Below are positions 12,693 through 59,127 of a stretch of DNA of 64,000 nt, one piece after another. Source of the DNA: Candidatus Cloacimonadota bacterium (GTDB lineage: Bacteria; Cloacimonadota; Cloacimonadia; G963667145); assembly GCA_963667255.1 (NCBI GenBank), contig OY762940.1, positions 288,001-352,000 on the forward strand, in the 5' to 3' direction. Each line of letters begins with the position of its first letter. The stretch's first letter is position 1. The notes beneath the pieces were generated by a model that was given only the letters and a program-made list of their open reading frames with translations, did not search any database and had not been told where the DNA came from. Both the position numbers and the translations under genes were made by a program.

Positions 12693-13712
12693 ATGAGAAG
12701 AATATTGGTATTCGCTGTGTTAACTTTTGTCGGCAATTTATTTGCCTCGGATATCATTTTCCCAAAAAATGCTGAAGAGATTTTCTGCACAGTGATTGGT
12801 ATCTCCTCAAAAAAAGTGACTTACTATCAAAAAGAGTCCAAACTTCTGTATCCGATTTTCACAATTCCCAAATACAAAGTTAAGCATATTATGCTCGAAT
12901 CTGGGGAAAAAATAGTCTTCAAACAAAAGGTTCGCAAGCCAAAACCAAAGCCAAAGCCGAAACCTAAAATTGTTATAGATACTTTGCCCGTTGACACAAT
13001 AAAAATCGATACCATTGCAGCTAAAAATTTAATTCTTGATAGCATCAGACGAGTTGACAGCATAGAGGTTGAAGAGATTTTGAAAATCGAGATTCCCAAA
13101 AAACGAGAGCCGATAACTTGCCAAAATAGACGATTTTATTCCTTCTTTGCTGGATACGGAATTTCCAACTCTTCTTTTGAACAGTCTGGTGGCAACTATT
13201 CGTCACCCCTTAGCTCTTTTACGGCAGGAGCTTATCGCAATTTCAAATTCAAATCGCCCTTTGTCCTAAAATTTGGAACATTTCTCACCTATCGCAAGGG
13301 AGAATTTGAGGAAACAATCACCAATACTTCCGCTTCTTATTCTTACACCAAAGAAACCGTAACCGTTTCTGCACTTGATTTAGATTTCCCTGTGCTAATC
13401 AATTTCAGCTTCGATGCGGGTGAGTCCAAAAACTTCAGAATTTACACAGATTTGGGAGCAAGGCTCGGTGTTTCCTTGCTTCGCAAATATTCCAGTGATT
13501 TACTGGCAAAAAACTTTGCAACCGCTACTCCGAAGTATGCAAAAAACGAATTGAGCCTATTCAATGCGGGTGGAATAATCTCGCTTGGAGCGGAAATCAA
13601 TGGCAAATATGTAGTGGAAACCAAATACGATTTCGACATCACGAACAGATATAAAACAGATAACAAATGCAAATTCCAAAGCGGTTGGTTGGTGATAGGC
13701 TACAAATTCTAA
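12693..13712 (+). CDS. Secreted/outer-membrane beta-barrel (porin-like) protein with Pro-Lys linker
   Basis: Signal peptide, KPKPKPKPKPK linker, alternating beta-strand pattern, C-terminal GYKF. Confidence 0.65.
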   Translation: MRRILVFAVLTFVGNLFASDIIFPKNAEEIFCTVIGISSKKVTYYQKESKLLYPIFTIPKYKVKHIMLESGEKIVFKQKVRKPKPKPKPKPKIVIDTLPVDTIKIDTIAAKNLILDSIRRVDSIEVEEILKIEIPKKREPITCQNRRFYSFFAGYGISNSSFEQSGGNYSSPLSSFTAGAYRNFKFKSPFVLKFGTFLTYRKGEFEETITNTSASYSYTKETVTVSALDLDFPVLINFSFDAGESKNFRIYTDLGARLGVSLLRKYSSDLLAKNFATATPKYAKNELSLFNAGGIISLGAEINGKYVVETKYDFDITNRYKTDNKCKFQSGWLVIGYKF

Positions 13713-13789
13713 TCCAAATTGTAAAAAGCACTTGACCAAATTTTTGCTACTCCCAATTTTTCAGCAACAAATTTCAAGGAGTTAATCTA

Positions 13790-14272
13790 ATGAACATTAT
13801 TGTTGAAAAAATCAAAGTTCCCAACGAAACAAATATCATTTTCGGGATAAGTCACTTCATAAAATCGGTGGAAGATTTATACGAAGTGATAGTCAACACA
13901 GTGCCGACCGTGAAATTCGGTCTCGCCTTCAACGAAGCCAGCGGTCCGTGTCTGGTGCGTTTCGATGGCAACGACGAAAAGCTGATAGAGGTTGCCAAAG
14001 AAAATCAGAAAAGAATCGGAGCGGGACACACTTTCCTCATCGTCCTCAAAGACGCTTTCCCTATCAATTTTCTGCCGGGCATCAAAGCCTGTCGCGAAGT
14101 TGCCACTGTGTTCTGTGCTACTGCCAATCCCGTGCAAGTCTTGCTCGTGGAGAACGACGGAGGTCGCGGAGTCATCGGAGTTATCGACGGACTCAGCCCC
14201 AAAGGCATAGAGCTTGCACACGAGAAAAAGGAAAGAATTGACCTTTTACGCAAAATAGGCTACAAGAGATAG
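13790..14272 (+). CDS. Adenosine-specific kinase family protein (DUF355)
   Basis: SHFIKSVEDL, FGLAFNEASG, FCATANP, GVIDG. Confidence 0.88.
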   Translation: MNIIVEKIKVPNETNIIFGISHFIKSVEDLYEVIVNTVPTVKFGLAFNEASGPCLVRFDGNDEKLIEVAKENQKRIGAGHTFLIVLKDAFPINFLPGIKACREVATVFCATANPVQVLLVENDGGRGVIGVIDGLSPKGIELAHEKKERIDLLRKIGYKR

Positions 14273-15844
14273 ATGAGCAATTATCGCGAAATCCCAGTCT
14301 CCAACCACATTCGTTACGGCAAAATCTACTCCTACTCACTGCTGGGGATAGATGCTTACCCTATCCAAATCGAAAGCGACATCAGGATTGGAATTGTTAA
14401 ATTTTCCATCGTCGGCTTGCCCTCATCGTCCGTAAAAGAGAGCAAGGAACGGGTCGCCGCAGCTATCAGAAATTCGGGATTTGAGTTCAAACCCTTCATC
14501 TACACGGTCAACCTCGCTCCTGCGGATTTGCCCAAAGACGGTGTCGCCACAGACTTGCCCATCGCCCTGTCCATCCTGCGAGCGTCCAAGCAGTTTCACT
14601 ACTCCAAGGACAAGAAATTTGCTTTTGTCGGAGAGCTTTCTCTGAACGGGAAATTGCGACCGGTCAAAGGTATCTTGCCCATGGTGATGCAAGCCAAAGA
14701 GAACAAACTCGATGCTATCATTATCCCCAAAGACAACGCCCGCGAGGCTTCCATCGTAAAGGGGGTCAACATCATCGGTGTGGAATCTCTGCGTGAGTGC
14801 GTGCAGTTTCTCCAAAAGGAAATCGTCATCGAGCCGACACCATTCAGCTTGGACAATACAAACCGTGCAGACCCGTATTTGCCAGATATGTTCGATGTGA
14901 AAGGGCAATTGCAAGTGAAAAGAGCTTTGGAGATTGCGGCTGCCGGTGGACACAATGTCCTGATGATAGGACCTCCCGGCTCGGGGAAAACTATGCTTGC
15001 CAAAAGGCTCACTTCCATTTTACCCGATATGGCTCTAGAGGAGATTTTGCAAACAACCAAGATTTACTCTATCGCCGGCAAACTGGTGAACAAAAACCAA
15101 AACATCATCTACTCCCGACCGTTCCGCTCGCCTCACCACACCATAAGCGACATCGCCCTCATCGGCGGAGGCTCGTATCCCAAACCAGGGGAGGTCTCTT
15201 TGGCTCACAACGGAGTTCTCTTTTTGGACGAATTGCCAGAGTTCAAAAAGAATGTTCTGGAAGTTTTGCGACAACCGCTTGAGGACGGAGAGGTCAGCAT
15301 CGCTCGTGCCAACTGCTCTCTCAGCTTCCCTGCCGATTTTATGCTCGTCGCCTCGATGAACCCCTGTCCGTGCGGATACTACGGCAGTAACATTCCCGGG
15401 CACGAATGCTCTTGCTCTCCGCTAGCTATACAACGCTACCGCTCCCGCATCTCCGGACCGCTCTTGGATAGATTTGACATTCACATAGAGGTCGGTGCTC
15501 TCAAGTATGAAGAGCTGGCTGCTCTGCCCAACGGCGAGAGTTCCGAGAAAATCAGAGAGCGAGTGAACAATGTCCGCCAAATGCAACGAGACAAGCTGGA
15601 AGGGATTTTCTCTAACTCCCAAATGTCCCCCAAACACATCAAGAAATATTGCCAAATCGACAAAGAAAGCTCCAAAATCTTGCAAACCGCCATCGAGCAA
15701 ATGGGACTGTCTGCCAGAGCTTACGACAAAATCTTGAAAATCTCTAGAACCATCGCCGATATGGAGGGCAAAGAGAACATCGAAGCTCATCACATCTCCG
15801 AAGCAATCCAGTATCGGAGCTTGGACAGGAAATTTTGGGAGTAG
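14273..15844 (+). CDS. comM: YifB/ComM Mg-chelatase-like AAA+ ATPase
   Basis: VNLAPA, GELSLNG, GPPGSGKT, PFRSPHH, GEVSLAHNGVLFLDE, NPCPCG, SGPLLDR. Confidence 0.95.
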   Translation: MSNYREIPVSNHIRYGKIYSYSLLGIDAYPIQIESDIRIGIVKFSIVGLPSSSVKESKERVAAAIRNSGFEFKPFIYTVNLAPADLPKDGVATDLPIALSILRASKQFHYSKDKKFAFVGELSLNGKLRPVKGILPMVMQAKENKLDAIIIPKDNAREASIVKGVNIIGVESLRECVQFLQKEIVIEPTPFSLDNTNRADPYLPDMFDVKGQLQVKRALEIAAAGGHNVLMIGPPGSGKTMLAKRLTSILPDMALEEILQTTKIYSIAGKLVNKNQNIIYSRPFRSPHHTISDIALIGGGSYPKPGEVSLAHNGVLFLDELPEFKKNVLEVLRQPLEDGEVSIARANCSLSFPADFMLVASMNPCPCGYYGSNIPGHECSCSPLAIQRYRSRISGPLLDRFDIHIEVGALKYEELAALPNGESSEKIRERVNNVRQMQRDKLEGIFSNSQMSPKHIKKYCQIDKESSKILQTAIEQMGLSARAYDKILKISRTIADMEGKENIEAHHISEAIQYRSLDRKFWE

Positions 15845-15867
15845 TGGACATAATGAAAATAATTGCA

Positions 15868-15922
15868 TTTAGAACACTCATTTGGGTAACTAAATTTAAT
15901 GTGGCTTAGATGGTAGTTAGCA
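15868..15922 (+). repeat. Conserved leader element (attI-like), copy A
   Basis: Ungapped 32/51 match to 18093-18143; both end in GTT at the start of an accessory gene unit. Confidence 0.6.
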
Positions 15923-15942
15923 CCTATTTAGAAAAACAGAAC

Positions 15943-16518
15943 ATGAAGCTACCTATATTAAAAATAGAAAATTCGGATTTAGTTGAATTCATTAGTTATT
16001 GGTCAAAGCTCTATGACTACCCATTAGAATCACTGTATAACGAAAGAATTTCAAAAAAAGAATTCGATAACGAAGACCTTCAACAATTATTTATATGGAA
16101 AAATGGAATGAAATTAAGTACTGGAAAGCAAAAGTCATTTGAGGAGAAAATTTTATCTAAACGAAAGGTTATAAATGACTTAAAAGCAAAAGAAAACATT
16201 GAGCTAAAAGAATTTCAAAACCATTTCAACAACCTTTCTGCTGTTTGGAAAATATTCCTTCTACATATAATCAGACCAAACAAATTTCCGATTTATGACC
16301 AACATATTAATCGAGCATTTAACTATATTCATGGACTTGCCTTTCATAATATCTCTGCGAATTCAATGACCAATAAAAGCAAAGAAGAATTTTATTTCAA
16401 TACATATTTAGGATTTATTGAATCATTGGATGGTATTGATTTAAAAGCATTAGATGAAGCTTTTTTTGCATTTGGACAATTTATAAATACAAAAACATAT
16501 ATTCAAATGATTAATTAA
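15943..16518 (+). CDS. Hypothetical protein (cassette-like, FPIYD motif)
   Basis: Clean AT-rich 191-aa ORF; no confident family assignment. Confidence 0.75.
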   Translation: MKLPILKIENSDLVEFISYWSKLYDYPLESLYNERISKKEFDNEDLQQLFIWKNGMKLSTGKQKSFEEKILSKRKVINDLKAKENIELKEFQNHFNNLSAVWKIFLLHIIRPNKFPIYDQHINRAFNYIHGLAFHNISANSMTNKSKEEFYFNTYLGFIESLDGIDLKALDEAFFAFGQFINTKTYIQMIN

Positions 16519-16592
16519 TAACAGCCCCTAACAATTTGTAAACACAATTAAAGTAATATAATAAAACAAACTCAACCCCACAGGAGACCTCA

Positions 16593-17222
16593 ATGACCAC
16601 ATATTTGTATGTATTAGACACACTCGCTGACTGGGAAATCGGCTACATCACCGCTGAGCTGAATAGTGGTAGATACCTCGACAAAACAAAACCGCCAGCA
16701 CAGATAATCAAAATCGGCAACACCACCGAGCCAATCAAAACGATGGGCGGAATGGCTATTACCCCTGATGCAAGTGTCAGCGAAATTGCTTTTGAAGACG
16801 GAGATTTGCTGATTTTGCCCGGAGCAGAGACTTGGGCAGACGAGAGCCACACCAAAATTCTGGATATGGTCCCCGATTTGCTGAGCAAAAATGTAATCGT
16901 CGCCGCTATCTGCGGTGCTACTATCGCTCTGGCGAACAAGGGGCTTTTGGACAATAGAGCCCACACAGGCAACGACAAAGAGGTCTTGAAGATGTTTTGC
17001 CCAAATTATGCAGGCGAGAAGTTTTACATCGACAAGCCTGCAGTGACAGATGGAAACTTGATAACAGCCTCAGGACTTGCTCCGCTTGAGTTTGCCTACG
17101 AAGTATTCAAAAAAACATCCGTGATGAGACCGAAAACTTTGGAAGCGTGGTATCAACTATACGCAACCAAAGAAGCCAAATATTTCTTCGTTCTGATGGA
17201 GTCGCTGGGAGATGGGAATTAG
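16593..17222 (+). CDS. DJ-1/PfpI family protein (type 1 glutamine amidotransferase-like)
   Basis: LADWE, LILPG, AAICG nucleophile elbow, DGNLITASG; RBS AGGAG. Confidence 0.9.
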   Translation: MTTYLYVLDTLADWEIGYITAELNSGRYLDKTKPPAQIIKIGNTTEPIKTMGGMAITPDASVSEIAFEDGDLLILPGAETWADESHTKILDMVPDLLSKNVIVAAICGATIALANKGLLDNRAHTGNDKEVLKMFCPNYAGEKFYIDKPAVTDGNLITASGLAPLEFAYEVFKKTSVMRPKTLEAWYQLYATKEAKYFFVLMESLGDGN

Positions 17223-17598
17223 ATGAGCAACATCAAACAATACAATCAACTCGACTTTTACACCAAAGTAGCTAATTTGCTGAAAGAATCTCGTAAAAGC
17301 GTTGTTCAAACTATCAACAAAACAATGGTTTGCACCTATTTTGAGATAGGACGAATGATTGTAGTAGAAGAACAAAACGGGAAAGAGCGTGCCGAATACG
17401 GGAAACAACAGACAGTGTCTGCTAAATCTGAAAATGCAATTATTTCAAAGGACAATTTGCAATTAAGCTGGTCTCATTATTTGTTGCTGATGCGAATAAA
17501 TAACTCCAACGAAAGAAAATTTTATGAAATTGAAAGTATTAATAATAATTGGAGCTTAAGAGTTAAAACAATTGATTGAAAACAAGATGAATGAATAA
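17223..17598 (+). pseudogene. YhcG/DUF1016 nuclease remnant with two internal deletions
   Basis: EEQNGKERAEYG and LSWSHY match the intact paralog at 19021; the C-terminal ELKQLIENKMNE* follows out of frame at 17560-17598. Confidence 0.85.
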
Positions 17599-17712
17599 CT
17601 TTTCAATTGCAATTATTATCGAATAGAGAAAATCGGTTGACGGCTTTGTCCAACTTATGAATATCAACAATCGGATAATTAAATAGCTTAGAAACGCAAA
17701 AGGAAACCCATA

Positions 17713-18060
17713 ATGAAACGGAAACTTTTTTTAATCATCACGCTTTCTTTGTTCACACTGCTTTTCGCACAACAAGCCGGTAGCACCATCGGCAACAAGC
17801 AAATCGGAGACATCAATTTATACAACTATCGCAAAGCAGCCATAGTCCAGTTCCCGTCAAAGATTTTGGAAGTCGGCTCGGAAAATTTAGTCTTAGACCC
17901 CAGCACCGTAAAGTTCATGGACAAATATCTTATCTTTGCGAGCAAAGCCAAACTCAGCGGTCAACTCTTTTACATCTTGACCGAAGAGAAAGCCTACTAC
18001 TATTATATCTCAACATCTTACAACGATAAATTTCCGGTTATACTGGAGATAGAAGATTAA
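17713..18060 (+). CDS. Hypothetical secreted protein
   Basis: Signal peptide MKRKLFLIITLSLFTLLFA; RBS AAGGA. Confidence 0.7.
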   Translation: MKRKLFLIITLSLFTLLFAQQAGSTIGNKQIGDINLYNYRKAAIVQFPSKILEVGSENLVLDPSTVKFMDKYLIFASKAKLSGQLFYILTEEKAYYYYISTSYNDKFPVILEIED

Positions 18061-18079
18061 ATTCGATATAAAGGAAAAT

Positions 18080-18153
18080 AAATGCAACTACGTTTAGACT
18101 GCCAATTTGGACAAATAAACACAATTAAGGTTATGCGGAAGTTGTGTGTAATG
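18080..18153 (+). repeat. Conserved leader element (attI-like), copy B
   Basis: Matches copy A (32/51 ungapped) and copy C (51/74, one gap); ends at the GTTGTGTGTA core. Confidence 0.7.
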
Positions 18154-18205
18154 CAATAAAAACACAGAAAACACTAAATACATAGACAAGAAGAAATTAC
18201 CTTAT

Positions 18206-18772
18206 ATGGAATACCAAGAAACTGGAAGATTTGGAAGAATAACAAAAAATCTCAGAAAACAAGGATTTGAATTAGAGATGAAAGAAATTCTTTACGACTC
18301 AAAAGATTTTCCTAAATTAAACAAGAAACTCCAAACAAAATACATTGCAACTGTAATGGATAGAATGGAAAATTCAATAGGAAAGAAAAATACGAAAAAT
18401 GTTTTGTTTTCTTGTGGAGTGCAATGTTGTGGAAAATCTTGGTCTAATTTTGTTAACGACATTTGGAAAAAATCTGAATCAATAGAAGAATTTATTAAAA
18501 ACTTAAATAAAGCAGAAGAAAAATACAGTACTTGTTTTTCATTTGACCGAATAAATAATTCAATATCAGTTTATAGAAAGAAGTGCATATGTGGCTTAAT
18601 AAATAAAGGAAACCATTTTGATGGCAATGCAAATTATTGTAATTGTAGCATTGGTCATATGTCAAAATTTTTCAATTCGGTTCTTCCCATTGATAATATC
18701 ACATTGAAACAAACAATTTTTAATGGAAACGACAAGTGTGAATGGGAAATAAAGATAATAAAACAAGAATAA
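18206..18772 (+). CDS. Cys-rich hypothetical protein (DUF6144/V4R-like)
   Basis: CGVQCC, CIC, YCNCSIG and G.DKCEWEI pattern. Confidence 0.65.
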   Translation: MEYQETGRFGRITKNLRKQGFELEMKEILYDSKDFPKLNKKLQTKYIATVMDRMENSIGKKNTKNVLFSCGVQCCGKSWSNFVNDIWKKSESIEEFIKNLNKAEEKYSTCFSFDRINNSISVYRKKCICGLINKGNHFDGNANYCNCSIGHMSKFFNSVLPIDNITLKQTIFNGNDKCEWEIKIIKQE

Positions 18773-18784
18773 AGAAACAATAAA

Positions 18785-18923
18785 GCACATACACACAACA
18801 ATGTGTCATACGTAATGGCGGCGAAAGTGCAAACATCAAGTTTTGACTCTCGCATCAACTTCATCTCGGTTTGAAAATGAGGTGCTCCGAAATCCGCCAC
18901 TACGCATACACTAACCGTTATCT
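18785..18923 (+). repeat. attC-like recombination site 1
   Basis: Starts ..CACACAAC just after the stop codon and ends CCGTTATCT; arms GTGT(C)ATACGTAATGGCGG / CCGCCACTACGCATACAC pair with one bulged base. Confidence 0.8.
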
Positions 18924-19020
18924 GCAAGCGGAAAACCAGCGACACAATCAACACAAAAAAAGATTTATTAGGAGTCGAAAAAAATAAAGTAACTTTGAAG
19001 ACTAAAATTTCGGAGAGCAT

Positions 19021-20043
19021 ATGACTAAATCAAATGATATAAAAATTGTTGCAGATAATTATGACAGCTTAGTTTCCCAAATATCTGATACATATTTACA
19101 AGGGAAAGATAATGCCGTAAAAGCAGTAAATTTAGAAATTGTAAATACCTATTGGAAAGTAGGAGAACATATCATTGAATATGAACAAAACGGAAAAGAA
19201 CGTGCGGAATATGGAAGTAAATTATTAGAAAAACTTTCAAAAGATTTATCATTAATGCACGGTAAAGGATTTAGCGTTAGCAATATTCAAAGAATGAGAC
19301 AATTATACGATGAATATCCAATTTATGCGACACTGTCGCACAAATTGAGTTGGTCACATTATGTTGAACTTCTAAAAATTGATGATAAGTTAGAAAGAAG
19401 CTTTTATGAAAAGCAAAGCATTCTTGAAAATTGGTCTATTCGTGAATTAAAAAGACAAAAGAAAACATCATTATTCTTGCGACTTGCAGCATCTAAAGAT
19501 AAAAAAGGAATTTTAGAATTAGCAAAACAAGGACAATTTGTTGAAAAGCCTGAAGATATAATTAGAGAACCTTACGTTTTAGATTTCCTACAAATTCCAG
19601 AGCCATATAATTTCAGCGAATCTGAATTAGAATCACGAATTATTGATAGCCTACAACATTTTTTATTGGAATTAGGAAAAGGGTTTGCTTTTGTTGGAAG
19701 ACAATACAGAATTACACTTGGAAACAGACATTTTCGAGTTGACTTAGTTTTTTATCATCGTATTTTGAAATGTTTTGTTCTTATTGACCTAAAAAAAGAA
19801 GAGGCTGGATATGAAGATATTGGGCAAATGAATATGTATATGGGATATTTTGAAGCCGAAGAAAATTCAGAAGGAGATAATCCTCCGATAGGAATTGTCC
19901 TTTCAAAAAACAAAGATGAATTACTTGTGAAATACGCAATGAACAAGGTAAATTCTCAATTATTTGTTTCAAAATATCAACTTTATCTCCCGAATCGAGA
20001 TGAATTAAAAGCATTGATTGAAAAACAATTAAATGAAGATTAA
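19021..20043 (+). CDS. YhcG/DUF1016 PD-(D/E)XK nuclease family protein
   Basis: RAEYG, LSWSHY, LLELGKGFAFVGRQ, VDLVFYH, LIDLK, GQMNMY, PPIGI. Confidence 0.93.
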   Translation: MTKSNDIKIVADNYDSLVSQISDTYLQGKDNAVKAVNLEIVNTYWKVGEHIIEYEQNGKERAEYGSKLLEKLSKDLSLMHGKGFSVSNIQRMRQLYDEYPIYATLSHKLSWSHYVELLKIDDKLERSFYEKQSILENWSIRELKRQKKTSLFLRLAASKDKKGILELAKQGQFVEKPEDIIREPYVLDFLQIPEPYNFSESELESRIIDSLQHFLLELGKGFAFVGRQYRITLGNRHFRVDLVFYHRILKCFVLIDLKKEEAGYEDIGQMNMYMGYFEAEENSEGDNPPIGIVLSKNKDELLVKYAMNKVNSQLFVSKYQLYLPNRDELKALIEKQLNED

Positions 20044-20066
20044 AAATATTAATATAGTGAACGAAA

Positions 20067-20205
20067 CCGCCAGCATAGAACATTTTGTATAAGCGATAGC
20101 GGGTGAATGCTCAATTCGTAGGTTTGTAACCCGCCCGAGCATTTTCTCGGTTTGAAAAGTTTAACTCACGAGAACCGCTACGCCACATACCGCCAACCGT
20201 TAACA
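20067..20205 (+). repeat. attC-like recombination site 2 (left core degenerate)
   Basis: Arms GTATAAGCGATAGCGG / CCGCTACGCCACATAC; shares TCTCGGTTTGAAAA and terminal AACCGTTA with site 1. Confidence 0.75.
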
Positions 20206-20227
20206 AAACATTTTTTAGGTGAATAAG

Positions 20228-20842
20228 ATGGAAAATTTATTTCTTGACCAAAAAAAAACACTTCACACTTGCAAGGAAGAAGATTGCAAAAATTGTAATG
20301 TATCAAAAGATATTAACTGTCATTTCAACTTAAAGCAGTTACTAAACTTTTTACTTATTGCTCTTCCCCCATTCATTATCGGTGGATATACCATTTATAC
20401 TCATAATTGGATATTTTTAGCAATTTGGATAGTAATTATTCTCTTATATTTCGGCTTAGTTGAAATTAGGGTAATGTGTTCTCACTGTCCGCATTATGCT
20501 GAGCCAAAACTAAAAACTCTCAAATGTTGGGCAAACTATGGTGCACCAAAATTGTGGAAATATAGACCGGGACCAATGAGCATAGCAGAAAAAACTATTT
20601 TTTTATTTGGAATGAGTGTTGCGTTTTTATACCCTATTATTTTCCTCGTCATAGTAAAAGAATGGTTTTTATTATTTATCTGCATAATGACCACTATCGC
20701 ATTTTTTGCCACTCTAAAAAATTTTTTGTGTGCACATTGTATAAATTTTGCATGCCCATTCAATACTGTTGATAATGATACAAGAAATAAATTCTTCGAT
20801 AAAAATGTGGTTGTAAAACAAGCATGGAAAAAAGAAGATTAA
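20228..20842 (+). CDS. Four-helix membrane protein with Cys/His clusters
   Basis: Two hydrophobic helix pairs followed by CSHCPHY and CAHCINFACPFN. Confidence 0.7.
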   Translation: MENLFLDQKKTLHTCKEEDCKNCNVSKDINCHFNLKQLLNFLLIALPPFIIGGYTIYTHNWIFLAIWIVIILLYFGLVEIRVMCSHCPHYAEPKLKTLKCWANYGAPKLWKYRPGPMSIAEKTIFLFGMSVAFLYPIIFLVIVKEWFLLFICIMTTIAFFATLKNFLCAHCINFACPFNTVDNDTRNKFFDKNVVVKQAWKKED

Positions 20843-21387
20843 TAATTGTAGGTGGAGCTAATGGTGTAGGCAAAACAACTTTTGCTTATCAATATCGAGA
20901 TGAATACAAAATTGATTATCTTGGAGCTGATGAAATTGCTTTGAGAATCAGCAAGACAGAAAAAAAAGATGTTGAATTAAAAGCAGGCAAAGAATTTTTC
21001 AAAACTCTTGATGAATATTACAATAAAAACAGATCAGTAATTATTGAATCAACTCTTTCTGGAATTGGATTATCAAAAAAACTTAAAAAATTTAAAGAAA
21101 ATGGTTTTACTATCCATCTACTGTATGTTTTTTTGGACGATATAAATTTATGTAAAAGTCGTGTTGCTGCAAGAGTCAAAAAAGGCGGACACGATGTCCC
21201 TTCTAAAGACATTGAAAGAAGATATTATCGCAGTTTTGCAAACTTAAAAAAAATATATCTTCCATTAGCAGATACTTGGCAAATTATATATAATGGATTG
21301 AAAAGACCTATTGAAATCGCTATTTCCGATAATAATTCAGAAATGATAGTTGATGAAGAATATTATAAAAAATTTTGGGAGCTTTAA
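20824..21387 (+). CDS. Zeta-toxin-like P-loop kinase/ATPase
   Basis: GGANGVGKTT, ESTLSG, RVAARVKKGGHDVP. Confidence 0.85.
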   Translation: MEKRRLIIVGGANGVGKTTFAYQYRDEYKIDYLGADEIALRISKTEKKDVELKAGKEFFKTLDEYYNKNRSVIIESTLSGIGLSKKLKKFKENGFTIHLLYVFLDDINLCKSRVAARVKKGGHDVPSKDIERRYYRSFANLKKIYLPLADTWQIIYNGLKRPIEIAISDNNSEMIVDEEYYKKFWEL

Positions 21388-21389
21388 AA

Positions 21390-21548
21390 ATGAATAAAAG
21401 TGATTTAAAAAAGACAAAAAAGAAAATCAGTGCTAAAGCATTGCAACAATTCGCTGACAATAGACGGATTTTTAATAAAGCCGTAGAAAAAGCGATTGAA
21501 GAGAACAAGAAAGCAAAAATATTAACTGAAAATCTTTATGCTAAATAG
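21390..21548 (+). CDS. Small basic protein, probable partner of the zeta-like ATPase (52 aa, not in ORF track)
   Basis: ATG 2 nt after the zeta-like stop; MNKSDLKK...AVEKAIEENKKA...LYAK*. Confidence 0.6.
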   Translation: MNKSDLKKTKKKISAKALQQFADNRRIFNKAVEKAIEENKKAKILTENLYAK

Positions 21549-21575
21549 TCCTTTAGAGAAAACCAAACCACCCTA

Positions 21576-22907
21576 TCATCGTCTCCGCAATCCCTTCGGT
21601 AAATAGTTGTTTAGTCTGCCGTTAGCGACCTTGCCCCAGCCAACTCCATAACCATCAACCGTAACCAAGCACCAACCTTTGGGCAAATGGACACTCAAGC
21701 TCTCACCTGCCAAATAGTCCGCCAATCCCAAATCACTACTCTCAAAATTCAAGCTGTTTACCACATCATTCGCCGTGAGATGCAAAGCCAAAGCATGCGA
21801 AGGCTCAAATCTATTCTTGGCGACTCCGCCCAAATGAAGCCCGAAATTTAGCACCCGCAAATCGCTCAAATCAAGATTTTGCTCAAAATCGTTTAGATAC
21901 AAATTGTCGTTCAGCAGGCACAACCGACCCGATAAACTCTCTCTCAAAAATTCTCGCTGGAATCCCTCCCACAGCTCATTTTTCTTGATACTCTTGGGGA
22001 ACTCTCTTTTGGATTTGGAAACAAATTTAGACGATTCATTCTTTTGCAAAACAGCCACAAAATGCCCCTCTCCCTTGTGGATATGCGGATAAATTTGCAG
22101 GGAGCTGAACTTGCCAAAGCAATCAACATTCTCAATCTCACTCCTAACAAAATCGGGATGTTCTTGCAAAAATTCGTCAATCTGTTTCTCGTTCTCCTCT
22201 GGGGCGAAAGTGCAAGTGGAATACACCAACCGACCACCATCGGCAAGCATCTTCGCTGCTTCGTGCAAGATTTGCTTTTGCCTCTTCGCACAACCGAGAA
22301 CGCTCTCTAAACTCCACTGACTTGTTGCTTCGGGATTTTTGCGAAACAACCCCTCTCCAGAGCACGGAGCATCCACCAAAATCTTATCAAAAAACAACAG
22401 GAATTTCTTCCCTAACTCCTCAGCCTCGTTATTGGTAACTATCGCTCTTCTTGTGCCAAACCGTTGCAAGTTTTCCCGCAAAATCTTCGCTCTGGAAAAC
22501 ACAACTTCGTTGGCAATAAGCAGTCCGCTATCCCCCAATTTGCTCGTTATCTGCGTAGATTTCCCCCCGGGAGCAGCACACAAATCAAGCACTCTCTCAC
22601 CCACTTTGACATCCAAAGCCTCCACCGGCAACATAGCCGACGGCTCTTGCAGATAATACAAACCCGCTTGATGATACGGATGCAAACTCGGACGAAACCT
22701 CTCCTCAAAATAGAATCCCTCATTGCACCACTGTATCTGCTCCAGCTCAAATTCATCTTTCAGAAACGGCAATCTATCCTTTATCTTCAGAGAGTTAACC
22801 CGCAACCCTTTGGTATGCTTACAATTATAACTATTCGAAAATTCCGAAAACTCCTCATCTCCGAGCTGCTTCTTCATCCTCTCCAAAAACAATTCAGGTA
22901 ATTTCAA
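21576..22907 (-). CDS. RsmB/RsmF (NOL1/NOP2/Sun) RNA m5C methyltransferase
   Basis: YLQEPSAM, LDLCAAPGGKS, VDAPCSGEG, YSTCTF..EENE; C-terminal RsmF-type domains. Confidence 0.93.
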   Translation of the reverse strand: MKLPELFLERMKKQLGDEEFSEFSNSYNCKHTKGLRVNSLKIKDRLPFLKDEFELEQIQWCNEGFYFEERFRPSLHPYHQAGLYYLQEPSAMLPVEALDVKVGERVLDLCAAPGGKSTQITSKLGDSGLLIANEVVFSRAKILRENLQRFGTRRAIVTNNEAEELGKKFLLFFDKILVDAPCSGEGLFRKNPEATSQWSLESVLGCAKRQKQILHEAAKMLADGGRLVYSTCTFAPEENEKQIDEFLQEHPDFVRSEIENVDCFGKFSSLQIYPHIHKGEGHFVAVLQKNESSKFVSKSKREFPKSIKKNELWEGFQREFLRESLSGRLCLLNDNLYLNDFEQNLDLSDLRVLNFGLHLGGVAKNRFEPSHALALHLTANDVVNSLNFESSDLGLADYLAGESLSVHLPKGWCLVTVDGYGVGWGKVANGRLNNYLPKGLRRR

Positions 22908-58936: not shown

Positions 58937-59127
58937 ACTCAAATCCTTATTTGTAATTCTCTCGCCAAAGTTGAGTTAGCGGTGCACAAAGTCAAGTGGT
59001 AGTTATCGTTATGTGCTTTCCCAGAGGGTCTTCATATCTGACCTCATAAATGAAGCCTCAAATGATTAACCGTATTTATGTGGTCAGGCTACGACAAAAA
59101 AAGAACAGATAAGCACGAAAATAAGAA

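Follow-up and report, generated by a model that had tools for sequence, protein, structure and literature searches.

The locus considered here raises the question of whether two long inverted repeats, each lying just behind a gene in the genome of a Candidatus Cloacimonadota bacterium, are the recombination sites of integron-type gene cassettes, and what kind of enzyme could have handled them. The repeats and their genes are found between positions 18141 and 20201 of a 64,000-nucleotide stretch of the chromosome, which was analysed as a whole and is called the window below. The genome (labelled G000) is one closed contig of 1,587,896 bases, with 39% G+C and 98.9% completeness. The locus is very probably a two-site CALIN (cluster of attC sites lacking an integron integrase), that is, a set of integron-type cassettes left in a chromosomal hotspot of a genome which no longer encodes their integrase. 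Taken alone, the element is clean and ordinary, of a kind that is both known and common; the attC family behind it is lineage-wide and little described, and the likely integrase of that family is unusual.

The ten nucleotides GTTGTGTGTA stand at 18141-18150 and their exact reverse complement at 18790-18799, as noticed in a preliminary description of this DNA, and the 10-mer occurs nowhere else in the window. From shuffles, 0.03 matches are expected by chance, and two or more matches were seen in none of 100 shuffles. The second unit starts with GTTATCTGCAAGCGG (18917-18931) and its site opens with CCGCCAGCATAGAAC (20067-20081); counted by hand, 11 of 15 positions agree with the expected complement, the same figure as given before. 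Both sites fold on the minus strand and are 127 nt long, attC site 1 running from ACACAAC (18793-18799) to GTT (18917-18919) and attC site 2 from ATAGAAC (20075-20081) to GTT (20199-20201). The earlier account of a repeat of about 130 bp ending in GTT at 18917 is right in size and in its GTT end, and needs correction only in that 18917 is the G of the terminal GTT and the site ends at 18919. The two sites can be aligned end to end with 77% column identity, and the motifs TCTCGGTTTGAAAA and AACCGTTA, already pointed out as shared, are present in both of the aligned sites.

In site 1, pairing by hand places GTGT (18803-18806) opposite ACAC (18908-18911), with C18807 bulged (a G on the bottom strand), and the A.C oppositions A18810/C18905 and A18815/C18900 of the top strand turn into G.T pairs on the bottom strand; the single bulged base and the A.C mismatches proposed for this site could thus be assigned to definite positions. 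The minimum-energy fold of site 2 contains bulged positions with T. Folding energies of the bottom strands are -19.1 and -22.8 kcal/mol for sites 1 and 2, against -17.0 and -20.2 kcal/mol for the top strands, and the minus strand is more stable by about 2 kcal/mol in both. The proposed folding of the bottom strands therefore gave the anticipated preference at each site, but the energy signal by itself is modest, since single-site z-scores of -1.6 to -2.4 are only moderately better than those of shuffled sequences. What supports the attC structure is covariation within the family, not energy.

The cassette nature of the first unit comes out of a comparison with a congener, G003. Between the DNA of the window and that of G003, near-identity runs only from the G of GTTGTGTGTA (18141) to the terminal GTT (18917-18919), with 97.2% identity over 780 aligned positions and one 9-nt indel, and both flanks of the shared block are unrelated. 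The identity begins exactly at the GTT of 18141-18143 (plus strand), where the crossover would fall between G and TT and which has no attC upstream of it, so that cassette A extends over 776 bp (18142-18917, plus strand) and corresponds to positions 13490-14260 of the G003 locus L057. Its gene (18206-18772, plus strand) encodes a Cys-rich protein of 188 aa with a weak DUF6144 match (PF19641, 28.6 bits, just below the 28.8-bit cut-off). This protein is 98.4% identical to its G003 copy, compared with 84% for ComM and 61% for RsmF, the products of the two conserved genes that enclose the region. Upstream of cassette A, G003 has the 3' end of another attC site of the same family, and the window has ordinary sequence. 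Since the identity begins and stops exactly at the GTT points and the flanks are unrelated, the unit 18142-18917 is, on the strength of this alignment, a discrete and exchangeable cassette with its crossovers at the G/TT of successive sites.

When the same G/TT rule is applied to the second unit, cassette B is bounded by the G/TT points of sites 1 and 2 and covers 1282 bp (18918-20199, plus strand). It carries a gene for a YhcG/DUF1016 PDDEXK nuclease-like protein of 340 aa (19021-20043, plus strand; PF06250 at 1.1e-57 and PF17761 at 2.8e-42). No close copy of cassette B was found in the 150 other genomes of the class, where the best match has 66-72% identity within the gene. Both units are G/TT-bounded and complementary at their start to their own attC, by 10 exact nucleotides in cassette A and by 11 of 15 in cassette B.

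Both cassettes lie in a variable interval of 5.7 kb between the ComM and RsmF genes (15845-21575, all ORFs (open reading frames) on the plus strand), the size and genes of which differ among congeners. The interval measures 3.2 kb in G001, 5.0 kb in G002, 19.2 kb in G003, and 3.8 kb in G005, with unrelated genes; in G004, the window RsmF query gave no match for RsmF. A constant gene order, which the preliminary description had named as a sign against cassettes, is not what these genomes have, as the ComM-RsmF order differs in every congener examined. G001 was considered as an empty site and was rejected: its homology with the window stops at the stop codon of the 115-aa ORF that precedes cassette A, and an insertion point is undefinable. 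Among contigs assembled from public sequencing runs, X5 and X6 cover 18141-18911 only and are preceded by the same attC tail as in G003; these runs probably represent G003-like strains and hence are not independent evidence. X3 has the window form up to 20159, and X1 has only short attC-like or partial pieces. A joint in X6 that goes back on itself was examined as a possible excised circle and was dismissed, because the two attC-like stretches that it connects lie 2.7 kb from each other on a single contig and form an array. Overall, one unit with exact G/TT ends is found in two species with far more diverged core genes, and the cassette nature can be taken as proved to the degree that such a natural comparison of sequences allows. 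The reading as integron-type cassettes, put forward at the outset, is borne out both by this recurrence with exact bounds and by the placement of the sites in a covarying family after single ORFs.

To describe this family, a covariance model (R1) was built from the minus strands of both window sites and one homologue from G029, i.e. from three sequences. With filters off, R1 finds in the window only the two sites, 1.3 kb apart (129.7 bits for site 1 and 126.4 bits for site 2), and nothing else below E=1. At E<=0.01 there are R1 matches in 39 of 151 class genomes, counting that of the window, and they are concentrated in three families: without the window genome, R1-positive genomes number 4/5 in family f1, 15/21 in f3, and 12/27 in f6, and 2/65 in f4. 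A custom covariance model had been suggested as a check, and its result is favourable in that family members were found in these 39 genomes, often behind single ORFs. Many of the matches form arrays, as in contig C249 of G043, with six successive same-strand units of one ORF and one site. A covariance model was needed for this purpose, as an nhmmer sequence profile of the two sites found only both sites in their own genome and nothing in the five contigs with true integron integrase (IntI) genes that are discussed below. A home-made scanner for generic AAC...GTT hairpins found 2/2 window sites and 5/6 of the G043 sites; it is orientation-blind, with scattered matches elsewhere, and it was used only for G009 and G015. 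Elsewhere in the window's own genome, outside the window, a weak match to the attC model at C1:253835-253962 (24.8 bits, E 0.003) possibly represents a decayed single site.

A structure alignment (A5) of 46 sites, 43 of them distinct, was fitted to the model structure. In A5, 84.2% of cells are paired versus 71.0% in shuffles, and 25 of 33 pairs have changed on both sides; within a stem of 16 bp, pairing reaches 95.3% and 13 of the 16 pairs are compensated. All five structure measures lie above all 500 shuffles and all slid controls, and pairing falls to 37-52% when the partner columns are slid. The three end pairs of AAC/GTT are standard in 39-42 of the 43 sites, and on the bottom strand the 3' end is GTT, then A/G, T/G, G/C. 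Two stem positions are of the G.T (or G.U) type in 40/43 and 39/43 sites and appear as A.C mismatches on the other strand. The spacer between end pairs and stem is asymmetric, with 7-8 nt on one side and 5 nt on the other, and the tip is variable. The bottom strand folds better in 32/43 sites, by a mean of 1.31 kcal/mol (Wilcoxon p = 1.9e-5, a value overstated since the sequences are related). The family therefore has three features of attC sites, namely AAC/GTT ends, an inner stem conserved in structure (a result favoured by the fit), and bottom-strand asymmetry.

Outer ends of AAC (inverse core) and GTT (core) are the consensus of integron attC sites, and a length of about 127 nt is within the range of chromosomal integron sites, such as the repeats of Vibrio cholerae. 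The proposal of an atypical attC family has accordingly to be divided: in length and in their AAC...GTT ends the sites are not very atypical, and the atypical component is the recombinase that accompanies the family in relatives. As a separate observation, G005 has two 5' attC halves (L026 9487-10181 and L025 11071-10308) cut at the same position by a non-coding repeat of about 700 nt. This repeat opens with a 50-nt hairpin that is also found alone, in at least 8 copies, in the window's genome, one of them at 59038-59088 of the window. A group II intron or an insertion sequence was considered for the interrupted half-sites and rejected, with no Rfam match at the gathering threshold and no adjoining transposase ORF; the insert gave only a chance match to a microRNA model (E=0.003).

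No integron integrase was found in the window or in the closed genome by profile search and tblastn, as the preliminary description had maintained for the window. The profile TIGR02249 detects only two Xer-like genes in the genome (295 and 314 aa), both far below the cut-off, and a tblastn search of the genome with the G003 recombinase described below returns the same two genes, without any integrase remnant in the window. A third tblastn match is the conserved 3' end of ComM, which overlaps the long reading frame of the query. The search of the assembly for tyrosine recombinases that had been advised consequently ends with these two Xer-like genes, and Pfam and related profile matches show no recombinase among the ORFs of the ComM-RsmF interval. 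It had been left open whether the recombinase is encoded elsewhere or has been lost; of these, loss is the better option because the congener G003 has a recombinase gene right after ComM.

CALINs are defined by at least two clustered attC sites that lack an integron integrase (Cury et al. 2016, PMC4889954), and the locus has two same-strand sites 1.3 kb apart and no intI in window or genome. By the counts given in Loot et al. (10.1101/2022.09.11.507474), 1362 of 2961 CALINs have only two cassettes, which is the commonest size class. No attI-like sequence was recognised upstream of 18141, which separates the locus from a complete integron, and region 18055-18150 shows neither a fold (z +0.4 to +0.6) nor an R1 match. 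The left junction, a bare GTT in non-att sequence, could be an attG-type secondary-site insertion; it could equally have been left by the deletion of an upstream site or of attI. Since the genome is without an integrase, the cassettes are most likely static in it.

A candidate for the missing enzyme is found in relatives. In G003, a tyrosine recombinase gene stands directly after ComM at the start of the interval, and the same position in the window is taken by unrelated ORFs. An array follows downstream of this gene in the same orientation. It opens with two unknown ORFs; then come the DUF6144 cassette with a site on either side of it, a SIR2-HerA pair, a decayed site, a type I restriction system into which a transposase has inserted, and one more site. 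The cargo between attC sites in L057 (2421-13489) is of defence type, and its type I restriction-modification system is interrupted by RhuM and transposase genes. A protein of the G003 type also stands at the head of two further co-directional arrays, one of six cassettes in G043:C249 and one of two in G096:C5. With the G003 recombinase as query, 42 places were found in 26 of 151 class genomes at E<=1e-45. Three of the 42 share a contig with R1 sites (G003, G043:C249, and G096:C5), and each of these arrays begins no more than about 3 kb downstream of the recombinase gene and runs in its direction. Of 79 loci that surround relatives of the recombinase outside the class, 4 carry R1 sites, which lie downstream and co-directional in three cases and upstream and divergent in one. 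ComM stands beside the recombinase only in G003 among the 18 loci checked.

The G003-type protein has the catalytic motifs of tyrosine recombinases, which are conserved in the catalytic region of 10 aligned members, and, like the true IntI of the class, it has a C-terminal SPLD motif. In an alignment (A6), about 50 residues of three true class IntI are absent from G003-type proteins; similarly, the G003 protein matches TIGR02249 in two pieces that skip profile positions 180-238, with 207 bits against the 265-bit cut-off. Neither of the two tested IntI features (a score above the cut-off and the additional domain) is found in the protein. Its best solved relative is the archaeal XerC-like protein 4a8e, followed by a Vibrio integron integrase in two stretches. 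Relatives at 40-55% identity are widespread, above all in Bacteroidota, with 45-49% in metagenome-assembled genomes of Bacteroidales. For 6 of 14 recombinase genes (L071, L073, L075, L076, L070, and L068), the contig ends 93-247 nt after the stop codon, several at a junction ...ATTA or ...GTTA which follows two copies of a short motif. This junction looks like an attI-type site with a first cassette that varies in the population.

True IntI genes above the TIGR02249 cut-off are present in 5 of 41 related genomes, and the class seems to contain classical integrons as well as the domain-less type. In G009, a 114-nt hairpin with classical-looking attC ends (L023 75-188) lies upstream of, and divergent from, a canonical IntI gene with an in-frame TAG. 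Since the apparent enzyme fails both of the tested IntI features, the wider system is not filed here as a classical integron, though it appears to work like one.

Several other explanations have to be weighed against this account. It is scarcely credible that the repeats are not recombination sites at all and are instead intergenic palindromes, such as REP-like repeats, terminators, or an RNA motif, that happen to resemble attC. The modest single-site z-scores, the position of the sites just after stop codons, where terminators also lie, and the existence of a different 50-nt hairpin repeat in the genome would suit such palindromes. They would not explain a shared unit that runs exactly from GTT to GTT and whose start is complementary to the start of its own site, the retention of AAC/GTT ends in 39-42 of 43 sites in arrays with one ORF per site, or a tyrosine recombinase beside some arrays; and an Rfam scan of two related G005 loci, to which it was confined, gave no family at threshold. 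If the repeats are recombination sites, they could be served by canonical IntI of other families of the class, the domain-less recombinase being an unrelated neighbour or a decayed integrase. This is unlikely. Four of the five genomes with IntI above the cut-off do have R1 sites, on other contigs, and the hairpin upstream of the G009 IntI gene looks like a classical attC. The IntI contigs themselves carry no R1 match at E<1 in any of the five, and a repeat search there found nothing attC-like. Moreover, the domain-less type is intact, with motifs conserved over 10 aligned members and a presence in 26 of 151 genomes; it heads the array in all three visible linkages, and 6 of 14 contigs end within 250 nt after its gene, as a repeat or a variable first cassette would cause.

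There is also a slight chance that the cassettes are still mobile in the window's genome through host Xer-like recombinases recruited to the folded sites, much as filamentous phage borrows XerCD. The apparent integrase of the family is itself Xer-like and without the integron-specific domain, the genome keeps two Xer-like genes, and most sites have an almost fully paired stem, like the phage CTX site that mimics duplex DNA for XerCD in the account of PMC4792948. Nevertheless, identity between the host Xer-like proteins and the G003-type enzyme is only 33-34%, and neither an excised-circle junction nor a cassette-less site was seen in the assembled public-run contigs, which cannot show rare joints. 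Four of five congeners are without the dedicated enzyme and three of these four carry sites, a distribution that fits decay as well as activity.

The reading of the locus as a CALIN, derived from a cassette system with the domain-less enzyme, has points against it as well. Extrahelical bases, a classical hallmark of attC, are not conserved: only 5 of the 46 aligned sites have the G bulge seen in site 1, and of the 36 sites with a long-range stem in their minimum-energy folds, 20 are without a pure bulge. The fit of A5 to the model structure inflates its pairing counts, and R1, with its three sequences, is narrow and sees close family members only. Cassette A has at its left boundary (18141) no preceding attC or attI-like end of the kind known from relatives. 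The link between recombinase and array rests on the three adjacencies within the class: 75 of the 79 loci outside the class are without R1 sites, and within it no R1 site at E<=0.1 follows the recombinase in G015, G039, G131, and G137 (6.9-8.4 kb downstream) or in G125 (about 1 kb). Finally, the short contigs on which true IntI was found in 5 of 41 related genomes cannot exclude service to this family.

A possible history and mechanism of the element preferred here, a CALIN left behind by such a system, can be described as follows. Each cassette consists of one gene and an attC of about 127 nt, the minus strand of which folds into a long imperfect hairpin with AAC/GTT ends, an unpaired asymmetric spacer, a stem of 16 bp, and a tip that varies. 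That crossover takes place between the G and the TT of the terminal GTT is shown by the exact limits of the cassette in common with G003. The interval after ComM may once have been a platform like that of G003, with a tyrosine recombinase gene and a co-directional array, or may have taken its cassettes from one. The recombinase would since have gone, and the cassettes are probably static passengers transcribed with their neighbours, which could move only if the cognate integrase were supplied in trans. The cognate enzyme would be the integrase relative without the integron-integrase-specific insertion that stands beside the arrays in G003, G043, and G096. With respect to the wider family, of which the window's two sites would be stranded members, we consider the chances about even that it represents an integron-like cassette system, with a folded single-strand site, G/TT crossover, and one-gene cassettes, run by a Xer-like enzyme that lacks the domain considered necessary for attC recombination, and with the strand marked by conserved G.T pairs and an asymmetric spacer in place of extrahelical bases. 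Either single-strand cassette recombination would then have been solved a second time, or the system would stand as a living intermediate between Xer and IntI.

The remaining features of the region are consistent in orientation within the interval. Its left flank is the conserved ComM/Mg-chelatase-like gene (14273-15844, plus strand; PF01078, PF13541, and PF13335), with 82-95% protein identity in 5/5 congeners, and its right flank is the conserved and convergent RsmF rRNA methyltransferase gene (21576-22907, minus strand; PF01189 and others), found in 4/5 congeners at 60-81% protein identity. Farther out are recA and recX upstream and gyrA and gyrB downstream. The interval contains, in order, an unknown ORF of 202 aa, a DJ-1/PfpI gene, an internally deleted YhcG paralogue, an unknown ORF of 115 aa, the DUF6144-like gene with site 1, the full YhcG gene with site 2, and three further ORFs. 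The YhcG paralogue (17223-17579, plus strand) has 118 aa and DUF1016_N only (PF17761), and direct repeats D2, D7, and D8 link it to both extremities of the cassette B gene. The start of the paralogue is about 71% identical in DNA to 19147-19214, and its final codons (17560-17595) correspond to 20002-20037; the middle is missing and no attC comes after it. The three ORFs after the last attC (20219-21548, plus strand; no R1 match) encode, by domain matches, a membrane-like protein of 207 aa and a zeta-toxin/AAA_33-like kinase of 187 aa, followed by one of 52 aa. The membrane-like ORF has a 51%-identical homologue in the ComM-RsmF interval of G002. The kinase ORF overlaps its end and the 52-aa ORF lies 3 nt further on (20824-21548), and these two could be a small toxin-antitoxin-like pair. 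Along the whole contig, cumulative GC skew is lowest near 440 kb and highest near 1220 kb. Judged from the skew only, replication would pass leftwards through the window (288-352 kb), and the minus strand, on which both sites fold, would serve as template for the lagging strand.

A literature search by title found no description of an integron or attC system in this phylum; CALINs of the phylum might already be among the taxa tabulated in the supplements to Cury et al. 2016 and to IntegronFinder 2.0. To this little-described family the window adds a locus and, in the pair of its genome with G003, useful material on the cassette system. If the domain-less enzyme does recombine these sites, site 1 and the G003 enzyme would make a simple substrate pair that is already to hand.

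Compared with known systems, the family resembles sedentary chromosomal integrons in its sites of about 127 nt, their similarity within the lineage, one ORF per site, the G/TT crossover, and the favoured bottom strand. It differs from them in that the array of relatives lies downstream of the recombinase gene and is co-directional with it, that the recombinase lacks the IntI-specific insertion, and that the strand appears to be marked by G.T pairs and the spacer rather than by extrahelical bases. The window locus is like the CALINs described in PMC4889954 in having two same-strand attC sites, no integrase, and cassettes of unknown or non-resistance function, and unlike them in that its sites come from a family specific to the lineage, with an apparent enzyme other than a canonical IntI. 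The plain GTT of the left junction is as expected from cassette insertion at a G-W-T core in attC x attG recombination, which inserts cassettes outside integrons and gives rise to SALIN and small CALIN according to Loot et al. (10.1101/2022.09.11.507474); a flanking CRGM motif (positions 6-9) was important in their work.

In layout, the co-directional, recombinase-first arrays of G003, G043, and G096 can be likened to rAID-1 of Bacteroidales. As characterized in Ross et al. (10.1101/471110), rAID-1 has a 5' XerD-like recombinase at least 44% identical to that of B. fragilis, at least two co-directional genes, and repetitive integron-like intergenic sequences. Its cargo consists of immunity genes, whereas the present cassettes carry DUF6144 and YhcG genes and, in G003, SIR2-HerA and a type I restriction system; folded attC-type sites or exact cassette bounds are not among the features that this description sets out. 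A further comparison concerns the enzyme itself. In Escudero et al. (PMC4792948), the extra domain and the extrahelical bases are treated as adaptations to single-strand sites, as opposed to the paired stem of phage CTX, which is handled by plain XerCD. If it is true that the domain-less enzyme recombines the sites described here, the view that the extra domain enables the handling of folded sites would need qualifying. The present family, with mostly paired stems and a domain-less enzyme, appears to occupy a place between the IntI and the CTX/XerCD cases.

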